Of a stretch of 64,000 bases of DNA, positions 6,822 to 15,836 are shown one piece after another; positions within the stretch are counted from its first letter, which is position 1, and the number at the start of each line of letters is the position of its first letter. The notes under the pieces were generated by a model that saw only the letters and a list, made by a program, of their open reading frames with translations, was not told the DNA's origin and did no database searches. A program made the translations under genes and the position numbers. Source of the stretch: an uncultured Candidatus Rokubacteria bacterium (GTDB taxonomy: Bacteria > Methylomirabilota > Methylomirabilia > Rokubacteriales > CSP1-6); the NCBI GenBank assembly GCA_963771355.1, contig CAVYTA010000005.1, forward strand, positions 480,001 through 544,000, in the 5' to 3' direction.

Positions 6822-6862
6822 CCGCTCGTGATCGGCACACCGTGGAGCCGAAGGAGGAGCGG

Positions 6863-7969
6863 ATGACGAGCAAGGCGGCGACGAGAAGAGTCGGCGGACA
6901 CCACATCGCGTTCGCCACGCTCGTGATCGTTCTCCTGGGCTGGGCGGGGATAGGGGTCGAGCCCGCGTGGCTCAACATCGACGCGTTCCAGTTCTTCGCC
7001 AAGGCGGACGCGGACGCGCCTCGGCTCGTCCGCATGTTCGCTCACGACGGCGAGATCGGCGCCATCGCTTGGAGTCCGGATGGCGAGAGGATCGCCGCGG
7101 GGGGACAGCTCCATCGAGCGCTGATCATCTGGGACGCCCGGTCGGGTGCGCGGCTACACACGCTGGACAAGGAGGATGGGTCCATTACCTCGGTCCGGTG
7201 GAGCGGCGACGGGCGCTACCTGGCCGCGGGAAGGATGTTCACGGCGGCGACGCGGAGCCATGTGGCGATCAACGTCTGGGATGCGCAGACCGGTCGACGG
7301 GTCCATGGCTTTCTGGGGCCGGACCCGGCGCGGCCAGAAGCGAATGACGTGCGCAGTGGTGCGTTGGCCTTCTCCCCCGATAGCACCCTTCTTGCGGCAG
7401 GGCACGTGGGCGCGGTGTCGATCCATGAGGTCGTGACCGGAAAAAGGCTGCCGATCGCGAGGGGACACGTGTCGATTGGCAAGGTTGTCGCATTCACCGC
7501 GGACTCGAGGCTTGTGGTGACATCCGGTCCTGCGCACGGACCCGTCATCCAAGTATTTGACGCGATGTCGGGGATTCCGGTTCGATCCTTTACTGGTGGT
7601 GATCAATCCCCCTTTGCTTTGGCAGTACGGTCTGATGGGCTCGAGATCGCTTCGGCCAACTTCCAGCAGCCGGAGATCAGCGTCTGGGATACGGGTTCAG
7701 GTCGAATTGTGCGCATCTTGACCGGACACACCTGGCCAATCCGCGCCCTCGAATACAGCCGTGATGGTCGGTTCCTGGCATCCGCGGCTCCCGGTGGCGG
7801 CGTGATGCTCTGGGATGCGAAGACCGGGGCCCGCCTGTCGAGCCTGCCGAATCCTTCGGAGTACGTCGACTGTGTCGCGTTCAGTCCCGATGCCCGCTAT
7901 CTGGCCGCTCCATTCGAGCGGACAGTTCGCATCTGGGACATCTCAAACCTTCACTCGCGCCACGAGTGA
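6863..7969 (+). CDS. WD40-repeat beta-propeller protein with N-terminal membrane anchor/signal
   Basis: About 7 repeats such as AWSPDG..IA......LIIWD, GHTWPIRALEYSRDG and VRIWD; hydrophobic N-terminal segment; RBS AAGGAGG before ATG6863. Confidence 0.9.
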   Translation: MTSKAATRRVGGHHIAFATLVIVLLGWAGIGVEPAWLNIDAFQFFAKADADAPRLVRMFAHDGEIGAIAWSPDGERIAAGGQLHRALIIWDARSGARLHTLDKEDGSITSVRWSGDGRYLAAGRMFTAATRSHVAINVWDAQTGRRVHGFLGPDPARPEANDVRSGALAFSPDSTLLAAGHVGAVSIHEVVTGKRLPIARGHVSIGKVVAFTADSRLVVTSGPAHGPVIQVFDAMSGIPVRSFTGGDQSPFALAVRSDGLEIASANFQQPEISVWDTGSGRIVRILTGHTWPIRALEYSRDGRFLASAAPGGGVMLWDAKTGARLSSLPNPSEYVDCVAFSPDARYLAAPFERTVRIWDISNLHSRHE

Positions 7970-7986
7970 GCTAGGAGAGCCGAGCC

Positions 7987-10900
7987 ATGGCCAGCAACCT
8001 GGAATACGCGAAGCTGAGCGCCTATGTCTACAGCGACGGAGGGCCGGCGCGGCCACCGCTTCCACAGGATTGGGTTCCCGTCATGGGATCCAATGGGTTC
8101 CCGCTTCAATCGTGGGGTCCGAGCGGATACTACGGGGCGGTATTTCGCAATGTGGTGACGGGCGAGTACGTCCTTGCGTCGCGGGGAACCGAGATCAGCG
8201 ATCCCGGAGATCGCGCGGCCGACTGGGCGATGTTGAAGGGGCAAGCCCCGAGGGCTCAGCTCAACGATGCTGAAGCGCTGCTGGCTCGCGCAATAGAAGA
8301 GGGCGTGCCGATAGCGAGTCTAACGTACACCGGCCACTCGCTGGGGGGAACGCTCAGCCAGCTTCTGTCGACGGGGAGCATGCGCCCGGCAGTGACATTC
8401 AATGCGGCCCCTGCGCGGGACTTGCTTCCGCAGCTGGGACGCGACCCGGACCGGCAGTATCCGATCGTCGACATCGTCGATCCGGCCGATCCGATTGCGT
8501 CCCTGGGCCGACATCTGGGGACGCGAATTCTGCTCGCGGCGGATTCATTCACTCTCTCGCCGGCCATGATGGCCTTGTACCTGGGCTCGGACCGAGGCGG
8601 GGGCGGGGGCTTCGTCACCATTGCCATGGAGGCGCGGGCGGCCCACTCCATCGACAGCGTGGCCAGAAAGCTCGATGCCGCCTGTTCCATCAACCCGTGT
8701 CCGGTGATCCTCGATCTCGACGGCGATGGGGTGGAGACGCGATCGGTTCAGTCCGCTTCGTTCTTCGACCACAATGCGGACGGATTCGCGGAGCAAACCG
8801 GCTGGGTCGGGGCGGATGACGGTCTGCTGGTCCTGGATCGAAATGGAAACGGGCGGATCGACTCAGGGCGGGAGCTCTTCGGCAATCACACTCTTCTGGC
8901 CAGCGGCATGGAAGCGCAGAACGGCTTCCAGGCGCTTGGCGCGCTGGACACGAACGGGGACGGGAGGGTGGACTCGAACGACCCGGCATTCACCCAGCTT
9001 CGTATCTGGCGTGACGGGGATGGAGACGGTGTCAGTGTTCCCGGCGAGCTGGCCACGCTGTCGGCCTCCGGTGTCCAGTCGATCTCGACCGGTTACGCGG
9101 AGGCGAGTGCGGTCGATCCGCAAGGCAACACGCACCGTCAGGTCGGCTCCTTCACCCGGACGAACGGCACCCAGAGCGTCGCCACGGACGTGTGGTTCAG
9201 CGCGGCCCCTCAGCACACCATTGCCAAGGACTGGATACTGTTGCCTCCGCACATCGCGGAGCTGCCGGTGGCACCGGGGTTCGGGACGGTGCGGGACCTG
9301 AGTCAGGCCATGGTGCGGGACTCGAGCGGCGCTCTGGAAGGGCTCGTCAGGAGCTTCATGTCCCAGACCGACCCTGCGCAGCGCGCGACGACTCTCGAGC
9401 AGATACTGTTCGCCTGGACGGGGACGACGGGTGTCGACCCCTCGAGTCGGGGTTCTCTCATGGACGCTCGGCGGCTTGCGGTCCTCGAGGCGTTCGCGGG
9501 CCGCCCGTTCTTGAATGGATTCGGGCCCAACCCGACCGAGCCGGCGGTGCCTCCGCTCATGGAGGCGTATACGGAGGTGCGCGAGCTCGTCTACGCGGAG
9601 CTGATGCTTCAGACGCACCTGAAGCCGTTGGATGCGCTCATCACCTACGCGTGGGATCCGGTGACCAGGAGCTCACGCGGCGACCTCGCTGCGGTGGCCA
9701 CCGCTCTCGAGGCCCGGCTGGCGCAGGATCCGGCTGGCGGACGGGCGCTGCTCGGCGAGTTCGCGCGGGCCGTCCGTGCGTTGGATGGCGAGGAGACGCT
9801 CGGCTACTGGGCCTTCCGGGATCGCTTGGCGCAGCGTGGCGGGGATCTTCTCTGGGTCATGGATTCTGCGGGCCGGCCGGTGGTCGGAGGCTCCGGCGGC
9901 GGGGAGACGCTCAATGGGACAAACGAGGCCGACGCGCTTCAGGGGGGCGCGGGGGCCGACACTCTCGCCGGCAGGCTCAATGGCGACACGCTGCACGGAG
10001 ACGCGGGCGCGGACGTCCTTTACGGCGAAGACGGGGACGATCACCTGGTGGGCGGAGCCGACGACGACCAGCTGTACGGCGGGGCCGGCGACGACCGGTT
10101 GGAAGGTGGAATTGGTAACGACGACGTGAGCGGTGAGAACGGTAACGACACCCTGGTCGGTGGTGACGGCGACGATCGGCTCGGCGGTAATGATGGTGAC
10201 GACGTTCTTCATGCCGGGCCCGGGCGAGACACCCTGGACGGCGGCCGGGGTAGTGATGTCTATGTGCTCGGGCGGAGTACCGGTCAGGCAACGATCAAAG
10301 ACAACGATTGGGCCTTTCCCGCCACGGACGTGATTCGTGTCGAGACCGGGATTACGCCCAAGGAGGTGATGGCCGCCCGGGACGGGGTCGATCTCGTGCT
10401 TCGCGTGGTGGGAAGTCCGACGGAACTGCGCCTGCACTGGTGGTTCAACGAAGGCTTCGGCTACGAGTACCAGGTGCAGCGAGTGGAGTTCACGGACGGC
10501 ACGGTGTGGACCACCGACACCCTCCGGGACCTGGTCACGCGAGGCACCGAGGGCCCGGACAGCATCACCGGATTCGGTACTTCCGATGTTCTGCGCGGAC
10601 TGGGGGGTGACGATACCCTCGCCGGGGCCGGTGGTGACGACCGTCTGGAAGGCGGCACCGGCAAGGACACGCTCTACGGAGAGAGCGGCAACGACACATT
10701 GCTGGGCGGACCCGGGGACGACGCGCTGGACGGCGGCCTGGACAGCGACACGTATCAGTTCGCCCGCGGGTTCGGGCGAGACACCATCTACGACAACGAC
10801 TGGTGGCGGCCCAGCCTCGATCGCGTCGTGTTCGAGGCGGGGGTGACGCCCGCGGATGTTACCGGGACGAAGGATGGCTCTGACCTTCTGCTCCGCCTCT

Positions 10901-12303
10901 CGGGCGGTACTGACGAGATCCGTCTGCACGGATGGTTCGCCGGCGGCGTGGACTACGCGTATCAGGTGGGCGAGGTTCGATTCGCGGATGGCACCGTCTG
11001 GGACCTGTCTCGCCTGCAGCAGATGGTCTTGCAAGGGACCCCGGGTGCCGACACCATCAATGGCTACGACACGTCCGACGTCATGAATGGCTTCGCGGGC
11101 AATGATCTCCTCTTCGCCTGGGGCGGCGATGACCGACTCGATGGCGGGGCGGGCGCGGACTGGATGCAGGGGGGTACGGGCAACGACACCTACGTCGTCG
11201 ACGAGGTGAGCGATGCGGTCTACGAGTCGCCGGGCCAGGGCAGCGATACCGTCGAGAGCACGATCAGCTACACGCTGGGAGCGAATCTCGAAAACCTGAG
11301 GCTGACCGGTGCGGCTCCCATCAACGGAGCCGGAAACGAGCTTGTCAACTCGCTCACGGGGAATGCCGCCGCAAACGTGCTCGACGGTGGACCGGGGGCG
11401 GATATCATGAGCGGCGGCAAGGGAAACGATACCTACGTGGTGGACAACACGGTGGACAAGGTCCTCGAGTCGTCCGGCCAGGGGGTCGATCGCGTAGTCT
11501 CCACGGTGAGGTACACCCTTCCCTCCAACGTCGAGAACCTGACGCTCTCGGGCTCCGCCGTGGTCGATGCCACCGGGAATTCGCTGAGCAATGTGCTGAT
11601 AGGGAACAGCGCCGCCAACACGCTCAGCGGAGCCGCGGGAGCGGACAGCATGTATGGCGGCGCGGGCAATGACACGTACGTTGTCGACAACGCCGGCGAC
11701 CTCGTAACCGAGCTGGTGGGGGAAGGAGTCGACTCGGTGAAGAGCTCGCGCACCTACGCGCTGACGGGCAATGTGGAGCACCTCATCCTGACCGGGACCG
11801 GAGCCATCAGCGGTACCGGAAACATCCTCGACAATTCGATCACCGGCAATACCGGAGCCAACACGCTGTCGGGAGGGGCCGGGTCGGACGTTCTCACCGG
11901 GGGAAGAGGAAGCGACACGTATCTATTCGGTCGCGGTAGTGGTGTCGATCGGATCGTGGAGAACGATGCGACGACGGGCAACTCGGATCGCGCCCTGCTC
12001 GAGGCCACCATTCGTCCCATCGACATCGTCCTCGACCGTAGTGGAGATAGCCTCCGCCTCGCCTTGTGGGGGAGCCCGGACACGCTGACGGTTCAAGACT
12101 GGTATCGCGGATCGGCGAACCGGGTCGAGACCATTCAGGCGGGAGACGGCCGCCGCCTGGCGTCGACCGGGGTGGACCAGCTGATCCAGGCGATGGCCGG
12201 CTTCAGCGGCAGCACGGGTCTGAGCTGGAGCGAGGCGGTGGAGCAACGGCCCGCGGAGGTGGAAGCCATCCTCAGCGCACACTGGCAGCCGGCGTCGATC
12301 TGA
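7987..12303 (+). CDS. RTX Ca-binding exoprotein: N-terminal lipase domain + FrpC-like self-processing module + RTX repeats
   Basis: ASRGTE, GHS118LGG, TFNA, D168, H220; [10 protein letters not shown]...[19 protein letters not shown]; many GGxGxD nonapeptides; C-terminal [12 protein letters not shown] secretion tail. Confidence 0.9.
11182..11910 (+). repeat. three tandem 243-bp (81-aa) RTX beta-roll units inside the RTX gene
   Basis: NDTYVVD codons at 11182, 11425 and 11668; units are diverged at the DNA level. Confidence 0.8.
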
Positions 12304-12342: not shown

Positions 12343-14514
12343 ATGGACTCGGCTTCTGCCGATTCGAGCCTCTCCGAGAGCGGGGTGCTGGGCCTGGCCA
12401 CGATCGCCCGCTTTCACGGGGTGTCCGTGGACCTCGACGGTCTGCGGCGAGTGCTGGGGGCCTCGGGCGCCCACGTGACCTGCCGCCGCCTCGTTGCCGC
12501 CGCGCGCCGCATCGGTCTGAAGGCGCGTGAGGTCTCGGGAGGCTGGGAGCGGCTCGCTCGTGCGCCCCTCCCGGTGCTGGGAGCGCGCCGGGACGGGCGC
12601 TACGTCATCGTGCTCCGGGTGGACCAGACCCGGGCCCTTGTCCAGGCGCCGGGGACGACGGCGGCGGCCGTCGTGCCACGGGGCCAGTTCGAGGAGGAAT
12701 GGGCGAGGCGTTTCATCCTGCTCGCGAAGCCGAGACTCCCCGCGCCATACCAGGGCCGGTTCGGCCTCGCCTGGTTTGTCCCCTACGTCACACGATACCG
12801 TGGCCCCCTCTCCCAGGTCCTCGTCGCATCGCTGGTCCTGCAGCTCTTCGCCCTCCTCACTCCGCTCACCACCCAGGTGGTGATCGACAAGGTCCTCGTA
12901 CATCGGGGACTGGTCACGCTCGACGTCGTCGCCGCCGGCATGCTTCTCCTCCTCGCGTTCGAGGGCGTACTCGGCGGACTGCGTGCGTACCTCCTGGCGC
13001 ACACCACGAGCCGAATCGACGTGGACCTCGGGATGTGGGTGGTCCGACATACCCTGCGGCTTCCGCTTGCCTACTTCGAGGCGCGACGGGTTGGTGACAC
13101 AGTGGCCCGGATCCGAGAGCTCGAGAGCGTCCGCCACTTCTTGACCGGCCCGCCCCTGACCGCCATCGTCGACACCCTCTTTGCCGGAGTGTTCGTGGTC
13201 ATCATGCTCCTCTACAGCGTGTCCCTCACCGGGGTGGCGGTCGCCGCGCTCCCCGCCTATGCGGTGCTCTCGCTCGTGGTGACGCCGCTCTTGCGTCGGG
13301 CGGTGGAAGAGCGCGCTCAGCGGGGGGCCGAGTCCCACGCCTTTCTCGTGGAGTCGGTCCGGGGTATCGAAACGATCAAGGCGATGGCGGCGGAGCCTCT
13401 CCTCGAGCGCCGATGGGAGGAACACCTCGCGGGCCTCGTGCGCGCGAGTTTCCGAGCCGGGCAGCTCGGTCAAGTCGCCGGGCATATCGCCTCGACCCTC
13501 GGCAAGCTCACCGCGCTGGCCATACTGTGGATGGGCGCGCGCGCGGTCATGGAGGGCGAGCTGACGGTGGGGGAGCTCATCGCCTTCAACATGCTGGCCT
13601 CCCGCGTCACCGGTCCGGTGCTCCGGCTCGTCCAGCTTGGGCAGGAGCTGCAACAGGCTCGCGTGGCGGTCGAGCGCCTGGCGGATCTTCTGGAAGCGCC
13701 GACGGAGGTGCCGGCGTCCGGCTCCCAGCTGTCATCCGGTCGTGTCGAAGGGCGGATCCGGTTCGAAGCGGTCTCATTCTCCTATCGGGTGGGCCATCCG
13801 GATGCGTTACGCGAGCTGTCCTTCGCGATCGAGCCTGGCGAGGTGGTGGGGATCGTGGGCCCGTCGGGGTCGGGCAAGAGCACGGTGGGCAAGCTCCTCT
13901 CCCGCCTGCACGTGCCGCAACGCGGCCGAATCCTCGTGGATGGTCTCGACGTGGCGCATTGCCATCCCGCCTGGTTGCGTCGGCAGGTGGCGGTGGTGCC
14001 CCAGGAGACGACTCTCTTCACCGGTTCGGTGCGGGAGAACATAGCCTGGGCCGATCCCGGCCTGCCGCTGGACAGCGTGATCGGCGCGGCGAAGCTGGCG
14101 GGGGCACACGATTTCATCATGGGGCTTCCGGCAGGCTACGACGCAGCCGTGGGCGAGCACGGCGCCTTGCTGTCGGGAGGTCAGCGACAGCGGCTAGGCC
14201 TCGCCCGCGCCCTCGTCATGCGTCCGGCCATCCTGGTCCTTGACGAGGCCACCAGTGCCCTCGACTACGAATCCGAGCGCGCGATCGAGCGCAACTTGAG
14301 CGTCATCTGTCGCGGTCGGACCGTGCTCGTCATCACCCATCGCTTGAACCTCGTGCGGCGCGCGAACCGCGTTATCGTGCTCGAAGCGGGCGGTCTCCGC
14401 GAGCAGGGTAGCCCAAGCGAGCTGCTCGCCGCGGGCGGGTATTTCGCCGGGTGGGAGCGCGAGCAGCCGGAGCCGCTGCCGCTTCCGCTCCGCGCTCGAG
14501 GCAGTTCCGCGTGA
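12343..14514 (+). CDS. hlyB: type I secretion ABC transporter (HlyB family, C39-like domain)
   Basis: QVVIDKVLVHRG; Walker A GPSGSGKS; LSGGQRQR; LDEATSALD; the C39-like N-terminus lacks the catalytic Cys. Confidence 0.93.
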   Translation: MDSASADSSLSESGVLGLATIARFHGVSVDLDGLRRVLGASGAHVTCRRLVAAARRIGLKAREVSGGWERLARAPLPVLGARRDGRYVIVLRVDQTRALVQAPGTTAAAVVPRGQFEEEWARRFILLAKPRLPAPYQGRFGLAWFVPYVTRYRGPLSQVLVASLVLQLFALLTPLTTQVVIDKVLVHRGLVTLDVVAAGMLLLLAFEGVLGGLRAYLLAHTTSRIDVDLGMWVVRHTLRLPLAYFEARRVGDTVARIRELESVRHFLTGPPLTAIVDTLFAGVFVVIMLLYSVSLTGVAVAALPAYAVLSLVVTPLLRRAVEERAQRGAESHAFLVESVRGIETIKAMAAEPLLERRWEEHLAGLVRASFRAGQLGQVAGHIASTLGKLTALAILWMGARAVMEGELTVGELIAFNMLASRVTGPVLRLVQLGQELQQARVAVERLADLLEAPTEVPASGSQLSSGRVEGRIRFEAVSFSYRVGHPDALRELSFAIEPGEVVGIVGPSGSGKSTVGKLLSRLHVPQRGRILVDGLDVAHCHPAWLRRQVAVVPQETTLFTGSVRENIAWADPGLPLDSVIGAAKLAGAHDFIMGLPAGYDAAVGEHGALLSGGQRQRLGLARALVMRPAILVLDEATSALDYESERAIERNLSVICRGRTVLVITHRLNLVRRANRVIVLEAGGLREQGSPSELLAAGGYFAGWEREQPEPLPLPLRARGSSA

Positions 14515-15836
14515 ATCGCCGCTATCGGATCGATCCTGACGATCTCGAATTCTTGCCGCCCGCCGCCGAGACCCGGGAGCGGCCCCCTTCTCGCCTGGGC
14601 GTCCTCCTTGGGCTGGTGATCGTGCTCGTCTTCGTGGGAGCCATCGTCTGGGCGTACCTCGGAACGGTGGACGTGATCGCGGTAGCTCGGGGACGACTGA
14701 TCCCTAGAGACCGCACGCAGGTGGTGCAGGCTGTCGATCCGGGGGTGATCCGCCGAATTCACGTTCGTGAAGGCGCCACCGTCCGCAAAGGGCAGGCGCT
14801 CGTCGAGCTCGATCCCACCACCAGCGACGCCGAGGGAACGCGACTGGAGCACGAGCTTCTCGATGCGCGGCTGAACGCCGCTCGTCTGCATGCGCTCCTC
14901 GCCGGGGCGGCGAGCCTTTCGCCTCCGCCGGCCGCGCCAGTCGAGGCGGTGATCCTTCAACGCCGGCTGCTCGAGGACCAGCGGTCCGAGCATCAGCGGC
15001 GGCTCGTGGCCGCGGGGCTCGCGACCGAGCAGCGGTCCGCGGCGGTGGCGGCGACGGCCGCGAACGTGGAACGGCTCCAGACCGTCGTGGCCATCCAGAC
15101 GCAGCGGGCGGCGGCTTTCCGGGCATTGCTCGACCAGCAGTTCGTCGCCACGCTCCAGTTTCTCGAAGTCGAGGAGCGCCGAGTGGACAAGGTCCAGGAG
15201 CTTGCAATCGAACGGAGGCGGCTCGAGCAGGAGCACGCCGCCCTCGCGGAAGCGGTGGCCCGCCACGAGGTCATCGACGCCGAGTTCCGAAGCGCACGGC
15301 TCGCCGAGCTCGCGAGCTGGGTTGCTCGCGCGGGCTCGCTCGCCCAGGAGCTGGTCAAGGCCGTCCGCCGCCGCTCGATGCAAAGGCTGTCGTCGCCGGC
15401 GGATGGGGTGGTGCAGCAGCTCGTCGTGCACACCATCGGAGGCGTGGTGGCCGCCGGCCAGCAACTCATGCTGATCGTGCCGGTGGAGGGAGGGCTGGAG
15501 GTCGAGGCGTGGGTGGACAACAAGGACGCGGGCTTCGTGCGAGCCGGTCAGCCGGTTGCGCTGAAGATCGAAACGTTTCCCTTCACGCGATACGGTACTG
15601 TCCCGGGGTCGGTGGTGGCGATCTCCGCGGACGCGGTGTCGGTGGAGCGCGTGGGCTCCGTCTACCTCGCGCGCATCGCGCTGGAGCGCGACGCGGTGGA
15701 TGTGGATGGCGAGATGATCGCGCTCGCGCCCGGGATGAGCGCCGCGGCCGAGATTCAGATCGGCCGCCGCCGCGTCATCGAGTACTTCCTGAGCCCGCTC
15801 CTGCGCCGGAGCTATGAGGCGCTCCGCGAGCGGTGA
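14511..15836 (+). CDS. hlyD: type I secretion membrane fusion protein (HlyD family)
   Basis: EFLPPA, TM, coiled coil, FPFTRYG, PGM..AEIQIGRRRVIEYFLSP; GTG start overlaps the hlyB stop. Confidence 0.93.
   Translation: MNRRYRIDPDDLEFLPPAAETRERPPSRLGVLLGLVIVLVFVGAIVWAYLGTVDVIAVARGRLIPRDRTQVVQAVDPGVIRRIHVREGATVRKGQALVELDPTTSDAEGTRLEHELLDARLNAARLHALLAGAASLSPPPAAPVEAVILQRRLLEDQRSEHQRRLVAAGLATEQRSAAVAATAANVERLQTVVAIQTQRAAAFRALLDQQFVATLQFLEVEERRVDKVQELAIERRRLEQEHAALAEAVARHEVIDAEFRSARLAELASWVARAGSLAQELVKAVRRRSMQRLSSPADGVVQQLVVHTIGGVVAAGQQLMLIVPVEGGLEVEAWVDNKDAGFVRAGQPVALKIETFPFTRYGTVPGSVVAISADAVSVERVGSVYLARIALERDAVDVDGEMIALAPGMSAAAEIQIGRRRVIEYFLSPLLRRSYEALRER

Follow-up and report, generated by a model that had tools for sequence, protein, structure and literature searches.

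FrpC's self-processing module (SPM) is known solely as an Asp-Pro anhydride machine, from a few proteins of Neisseriaceae and Pasteurellaceae, and relatives that lack the Asp have so far been passed over as probably inactive. In FrpC the scissile Asp is reported to close a five-membered ring on its own carbonyl with cleavage at Asp|Pro, and modules of the Asp type have been reported to cleave (PMC7078468). The same report describes calcium loops at D419-G424 with D456, at D462-E474, from D499, and at D521-E532, a tryptophan pair (W451/W519), and a port formed by W451, L475, G477, G491, and D579-L582, and it indicates that replacement of D478 by Asn is tolerated with moderate slowing (PMC7078468). 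Cleavage is reportedly abolished by D414A and blocked by an Asp, Gly, or Pro immediately before the site (PMC7846742). ApxIVA and ORF1 are described as an antibacterial toxin-immunity pair (preprint 10.64898/2026.10.19.759954, citing Slivenecka 2025), and the same has been proposed for FrpD-FrpC (PMC6759196). An ApxIVA-related homologue of A. pleuropneumoniae with C161-P162 at the site appears in that preprint as a single divergent case, from which activity is not inferable. A literature search, with most subscription papers outside its scope, returned no description or test of Ser/Cys/Thr-Pro modules, and non-Asp cases could appear in supplementary alignments (e.g. Lim 2025 Fig. S1); the Ser/Cys/Thr-Pro subclass of this known module is apparently undescribed.

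We describe here an SPM in which Cys occupies the position of the scissile Asp, encoded within a 64,000-nucleotide stretch of DNA from an uncultured Candidatus Rokubacteria bacterium (the window; Table 1). Residues 239–410 match the FrpC SPM structure 6sjw with an E value of 1.3e-46, beginning at the first residue, Pro415. Foldseek matches 6sjw from predicted models (E 1.4e-20, TM 0.85; pLDDT of the two models 85.7 and 92.7), and fold comparison gives a Z of 25.6 with an rmsd of 2.6 over 167 residues. The module is a member of the FrpC-type self-processing fold family. In the alignment to FrpC (P0340), C238-P239 falls on D414-P415, as the initial annotation had proposed, and the motifs that it quoted are all present. 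All of the calcium loops are kept (D243/D245/D247/G248 with D278, D284-E296, D321-D332, and D343-E354), W273 and W341 align with the W451/W519 pair, and the port residues L297, G299, G313, W273, and D401 are retained, D401 corresponding to D579, which together with D478 is a proposed ligand of the fifth calcium. The departures are N300 for D478, H383 for L561, and W403 for L581.

Table 1. Features of the RTX locus, with positions in the window
Feature	Position	Strand	Basis
WD40 beta-propeller protein with N-terminal hydrophobic export segment	6842..7969	+	Pfam WD40, sequence
RTX protein of 1438 aa with a lipase-like domain, a self-processing module, a FrpC-type helical region and RTX repeats	7987..12303	+	ORF, Pfam, sequence and fold matches
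Lipase-like domain, residues 1-235, GHSLGG motif	7987..8691	+	fold
Predicted triad S118, D168, H220	8338-8340, 8488-8490, 8644-8646	+	homologue conservation
Cys233, unconserved	8683..8685	+	in 4/27 Cys-type homologues
Pro237-Cys238-Pro239, with Cys238 (8698-8700) at the FrpC Asp414 position	8695..8703	+	alignment, homologues
FrpC-type self-processing module, residues 239-410, four calcium loops and Trp273/Trp341 pair	8701..9216	+	sequence, fold
Asn300, at FrpC Asp478 (proposed fifth-calcium ligand)	8884..8886	+	alignment
His383 and Gln385, predicted strand pairing with port strand; enriched in Ser/Cys/Thr modules	9133..9141	+	
Asp401-Val-Trp403-Phe404, port strand (FrpC D579-L582); D-V-W-F typical of Ser/Cys/Thr modules	9187..9198	+	
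Helical region conserved after the module in FrpC-type proteins	9238..9876 (approximate limits)	+	conserved in both classes
RTX calcium-binding repeats and C-terminal region	9904..12303 (start approximate)	+	PF00353, PF06594
HlyB-type type I secretion ABC transporter	12343..14514	+	TIGR01846 above cut-off
HlyD-type type I secretion adaptor	14451..15836	+	TIGR01843 above cut-off

Because Cys replaces the scissile Asp, formation of an aspartic anhydride is impossible here, and by sequence the module lies outside the Asp-Pro clip-and-link class, the Asp before its first Pro being absent. C238 and C233 are the sole cysteines of the protein. Sequencing error or a private mutation can be set aside, since C238 is encoded by TGT, which would have to change at two bases to give Asp, and Cys is present in 27 homologues. 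The genome has just one such module, a match occurs in 13 of 251 genomes from this phylum, and a search of plasmids found 172 records.

The identity of the residue before the module's Pro was tabulated at several depths. A representative search returned 25,743 relatives at E 0.001, of which the best 150 were inspected. Once a near-duplicate of the protein itself is left out, the lipase-module homologues number 31, and the position is Cys in 27 of them and Ser in four. With this protein and one Asp-type relative as queries, searches gathered a broader collection of 583 modules. To reduce seed bias, a profile that starts at the Pro and draws half of its rows from Asp-type modules was run against 1,003 genomes sampled evenly from three other phyla, giving about 390 matches, from which 170 stretches, mainly of the higher-scoring matches, were taken. 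The 141 distinct full modules of this even sample comprise 99 with D-P and 35 with S/C/T-P, so that Asp is the majority state of the family; an apparent majority of Ser, Cys, and Thr was an artefact of seeding the searches with this protein.

Toxin-type modules were defined as those followed by the FrpC-type helical region. The even sample contains 53 of these (28 Asp, 16 Ser, five Cys, two Tyr, one Pro, and one Asn), and 15 of the 53 share 70% identity or more with rows already collected. Combining both samples at less than 70% identity, and excluding seven mis-called rows, yields 202 toxin-type modules with 101 Ser, 74 Asp, 20 Cys, three Thr, and one each of Glu, Val, Pro, and Tyr. Thus 124 of the 202 have Ser, Cys, or Thr at this border position, and none has Ala or Gly. 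At two other Ser-rich columns, Ala is the usual substitute (15 of 25 non-Ser residues at position 365 and eight of 33 at 373), and degenerate repeat copies in giant proteins have Ala, Pro, or Leu at the site in 87 of 174 cases. At position 238 Cys accounts for 18 of 173 residues, against 14 of 29,579 across the module core. The position has changed state at least 11–12 times on two trees, and Ser is encoded by both codon families (33 TCN and 26 AGY, with loci not de-duplicated). The expectation that Cys or Ser would be conserved here therefore held, although the Cys is not a peculiarity of this protein: as judged from these alignments, Ser/Cys/Thr-Pro is a widespread subclass in which Ser is the commonest residue and Cys238 is one of the states.

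Several further groups were noted. A clade in the cyanobacterial-phylum sample combines C-P modules (L176, L177, and L183) with others that have P-P, N-P, Y-P, and Y-S (L267, L179, L181, and L187); the helical region is kept, His383, Trp403, and often Asp401 are missing, and the clade is probably a degenerate end of the family. Very large repeat proteins (L115-L117, L197, L198, L200, and L091) carry C-terminal T-P or S-P modules with D-V-W-F, no His, and no helical region. Proteins of 350–500 aa that end in a divergent D-P module and have no RTX tail (L143-L160) occur in many genomes of the Desulfobacterota-like sample. Giant proteins of the P0011-P0057 group (e.g. P0013, P0016, and P0043) have, close to the C-terminus, three or four degenerate repeats resembling the SPM, with Pro, Ala, Ser, or Leu before the Pro and the port loop deleted, and often have in addition one D-P or S-P module with the helical region near the N-terminus.

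The class of the site residue is tracked by residues of the port. Because D579-L582 form part of the FrpC port, residues 401–404 are port residues. In the pooled set W403 is present in 115 of 124 Ser/Cys/Thr modules as against three of 75 with Asp or Glu (11 of the 75 being gapped here), H383 in 102 of 124 as against two of 75, and D401 in 121 of 124 as against 36 of 75; 102 of the 106 modules with both H383 and W403 are of the Ser/Cys/Thr class. Position 300 runs in the opposite direction, with Asp in 16 of 124 versus 49 of 75, and mostly Asn or Ser in the Ser/Cys/Thr class. In a coupling analysis, positions 401 and 403 are among the top partners of 238, and a hairpin register of i+j=786 is recovered (F389-S397, G387-A399, Q385-D401, and H383-W403), from which we infer, by couplings rather than coordinates, that H383 sits opposite W403 and near the site. 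A four-state test of correlated change, on a tree that draws only on sequence following the module (169 rows), places W403, F404, H383, V402, and D401 at ranks one to five of 26 class-enriched columns with LRT values of 37–63; unrelated columns reach 34, so that the rank alone counts. Tests on independent pairs with three trees (6–8 pairs on well-supported branches) go in the expected direction and are not significant (median p 0.125–1). In Asp modules that branch within groups of Ser relatives, H383 and W403 are mostly missing, although four such modules are exceptions. The initial annotation had offered either inactivity or a different chemistry for a Cys module, and the co-varying port residues appear to lend support to the second.

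His383 was considered as an obligatory catalytic base, a role weakened by its absence from 13 of the 31 close homologues (18 have it) and from seven of the 10 Ser/Cys/Thr modules new in the even sample (three have it). It is found in 25 of 39 Cys modules and 159 of 178 Ser modules.

The arrangement of the locus would suit a secreted toxin carrier. The best fold matches of the lipase-like domain, which Pfam does not recognize at E 1e-4, are the feruloyl esterase 1uza and the T6SS lipase effector 9cys, and the predicted triad is conserved in homologues (S118 in 31/31, D168 in 31/31, and H220 in 30/31). The proposal that the site lies at the lipase boundary agrees with the predicted models, in which C238 is three residues beyond the end of the last predicted lipase helix (222–235). 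With RTX repeats and linked HlyB/HlyD genes, the protein has the attributes of a type I-secreted RTX protein. The transporter reads E-S-G where the C39 catalytic motif, D-C-G, would be, and so probably supplies no protease.

A WD40 homologue is encoded directly upstream in 10 other lipase-module loci, with modules of the Cys (L017 and L094-L096), Ser (L016, L035, L100, and L101), and Asp (L102 and L103) types; in six more distant lipase loci the upstream genes are different. That the same WD40-lipase arrangement is coupled to Cys, Ser, or Asp modules suggests that these are equivalent in function, and Asp modules are reported to cleave (PMC7078468). From its gene order, the WD40 protein is a candidate immunity protein; prediction of a complex between the lipase (1–237) and WD40 (52–375) gave a score of 0.00, which is no answer and speaks neither for nor against. 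Among the 74 N-terminal domains scanned with Pfam, six are Lipase_3, three M23 peptidase, and one phage lysozyme, and most have no recognized enzyme family. A same-strand open reading frame of 100–500 codons lies just upstream in 61 of 80 fetched SPM-RTX genes, about 41–44 of 47 upstream proteins have no Pfam match and four have one, and two cassettes are in tandem at six loci. Together, the variable N-terminal domain, constant carrier, adjacent gene, and spare cassettes make up the layout of polymorphic toxin-immunity systems.

We also note several features of the locus and its relatives. Third-position GC is 0.75–0.81 in the WD40 and RTX genes (6842-12303) and 0.86–0.96 in the upstream genes, which, with the presence of the module in 13 of 251 genomes of the phylum, suggests that the segment is an acquired island. 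In the closest named relative (L017/L098, G181:C17) both the WD40 and RTX genes are fragmented in the assembly, through error or decay. Tandem arrays of an upstream gene and a short or truncated SPM-RTX gene, with differing N-terminal domains, are present at L035, L044, L053, L060, L069, and L086; the genomes G656 (eight matches) and G716 (four) also have tandem arrays, resembling the spare cassettes of polymorphic toxin loci, and Ser and Asp modules are side by side within one array (L060, G656). The genes upstream of L037, L039, L051, L079, and L089 encode a family of small proteins that start M-x-F-V-N-E, lack a signal for export, and go together with a single type of N-terminal domain. These are candidate cytoplasmic immunity proteins, and cytoplasmic immunity, if so, would imply that the toxin domain enters cells.

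There are several plausible models for what a Ser/Cys/Thr-Pro module does. The one that we put forward, at about even confidence, is that it cuts itself by a thiol or hydroxyl route, an N-to-S/O acyl shift, releasing the N-terminal domain. Inteins and the hedgehog, SEA, and GAIN domains use such a shift, in which Cys, Ser, or Thr closes a ring on the preceding carbonyl. Following export by the adjacent HlyB/HlyD system, calcium-driven folding would draw the chain at 236–239 through the narrow port and strain it, as proposed for FrpC; the thiol of Cys238, or the hydroxyl of Ser or Thr in relatives, would then attack the preceding carbonyl through a five-membered ring and give the acyl shift, with the cut at Pro237|Cys238, one residue upstream of where FrpC is cleaved. 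Cys238 would be held in position by Asp401 and Trp403, and His383, where present, would aid activation. Hydrolysis of the thioester, or its capture by an amine or a thiol, would free or cross-link the lipase of about 25 kDa, which likely acts on rival bacteria, with the producer likely protected by the WD40 protein encoded upstream. The acyl shift is favored both because position 238 holds almost exclusively side chains that can attack an amide, with no Ala or Gly among the 202, and because W403, H383, and D401 track the Ser/Cys/Thr class. It is disfavored by four toxin-type modules of the even sample that have Pro, Asn, or Tyr at the site, by the strain in FrpC being proposed at the X-Pro bond rather than the bond preceding it (PMC7078468), and by Pro237, given that Asp, Gly, or Pro before the site blocks FrpC (PMC7846742). 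One of these three residues precedes the site in 32 of 124 Ser/Cys/Thr modules, including 13 of 20 with Cys, and in eight of 74 Asp modules. A Pro at the residue before the site also disfavors intein cleavage.

A second model, which we consider a serious contender without thinking it probable, is that the Ser/Cys/Thr-Pro module is a calcium-folding domain that does not cleave, with the lipase acting while attached to its RTX carrier and the small hydroxyl or thiol doing nothing beyond hydrogen bonding to Asp401 in a tight port shut by Trp403. The loss of FrpC cleavage in D414A is in keeping with this (PMC7846742), as are the replacement of the fifth-calcium ligand D478 in most of the class, the weaker constraint on the preceding residue, which is often Pro or Gly, the dispensability of H383 among close homologues, the retention of fold motifs and D401 in degenerate copies with Pro, Ala, or Leu, and the one clade with Pro, Asn, or Tyr at the position. 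However, a buried Ser that is needed solely for hydrogen bonding should sometimes become Ala, which it has not, and yet Cys has arisen repeatedly. A single conserved Cys in a secreted protein of 1,430 aa is also unusual, and in both classes the site forms the boundary of N-terminal domains that are toxin-like and highly variable.

A third model, in our estimation unlikely, retains the FrpC-like position of the cut at Cys238-Pro239, with Cys or Ser assisting rather than undergoing a shift, either through hydrolysis of a twisted amide by water activated near Asp401, His383, or Ca2+, or through a strained four-membered thiolactone. The port residues are kept, a twisted amide has been proposed at the X-Pro bond (PMC7078468), and Pro237, present in 26 of 31 homologues including the window's protein, suits such a cut better than it does an acyl shift onto Pro. 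Plain hydrolysis, though, needs no Ser, Cys, or Thr and would not exclude Ala. Formation of a four-membered ring from Ser is, moreover, energetically poor. Gating by the redox state of a C233-C238 disulfide, suggested initially and in keeping with the two cysteines lying five residues apart and the lack of any others in the protein, is highly improbable and is rejected as a general mechanism, because C233 is shared by four of the 27 Cys-type homologues, all of them among the closest relatives, C238 is the sole Cys in 19 of the 27, and Ser without a partner Cys is what most modules of the class contain; in this one lineage a disulfide may form and, if it does, would block the thiol.

If the acyl-shift model is correct and the Ser/Cys class cuts, then a single fold accommodates two chemistries of self-cleavage, with a few port substitutions converting one into the other, a large number of proteins predicted to be antibacterial toxins secreted by type I systems gain a means of release, and a calcium-inducible thioester or clean self-cleaving tag would be available for protein engineering, beside NeissLock. 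Extending this, we raise tentatively, and with some doubt, the possibility that roughly half of the FrpC-type modules that bear toxins are autoprocessing domains of an undescribed class, triggered by calcium and using Ser or Cys on the same fold, that evolution has switched repeatedly between anhydride (Asp) and ester or thioester (Ser/Cys) chemistry, and that Cys versions leave a C-terminal thioester on the toxin that is ligatable to target proteins, possibly trapped as a Cys-Pro diketopiperazine. If the class does not cut, then about half of these toxin carriers act without release, and the purpose of clip-and-link is itself called into question.

Among known systems, the C161-P162 homologue related to ApxIVA likewise has Cys-Pro at the SPM boundary, although what the preprint offers on it is a single case, with no class, mechanism, or test attached (10.64898/2026.10.19.759954). 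The acyl-shift autoprocessing domains (intein/hedgehog Hint, SEA, GAIN, and Nup98) share the interchange of Ser, Cys, and Thr at a domain border, here probably beside His and Asp. No relation in fold to these emerged, in that 6sjw alone exceeds a Z of 5 among 48,161 chains, and the other autoprocessing folds in this wide search do not exceed 3.3, an absence that is not exclusion. Cysteinyl-prolyl esters serve chemists as thioester precursors, Cys-Pro driving an N-S shift that is trapped as a diketopiperazine (PMC6566460); the chemical system requires an activated leaving group after the Pro, whereas the protein has none, and such trapping in this protein is speculation by analogy. Were the Cys thioester to form, the module would be a natural counterpart of this Cys-Pro trick and an inducible, genetically encoded thioester tag. 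As in ApxIVA/ORF1 and FrpD-FrpC, the gene immediately upstream of the SPM-RTX gene encodes an exported protein and the N-terminal domain is variable; the locus differs in its lipase fold and upstream WD40 propeller. By analogy, the lipase and WD40 protein would fit the toxin-immunity role reported for ApxIVA and proposed for FrpC/FrpD. The closest relative remains FrpC itself. The two SPMs are 47–49% identical and agree in fold, in having four calcium loops and a Trp pair, in starting with Pro, and in keeping D579 (as D401), and in both proteins the module stands between an N-terminal domain and RTX repeats and secretion is of type I. The two differ here in the Cys at the scissile Asp, the Asn at D478, the His at L561, the Trp at L581, and the Pro before the site.
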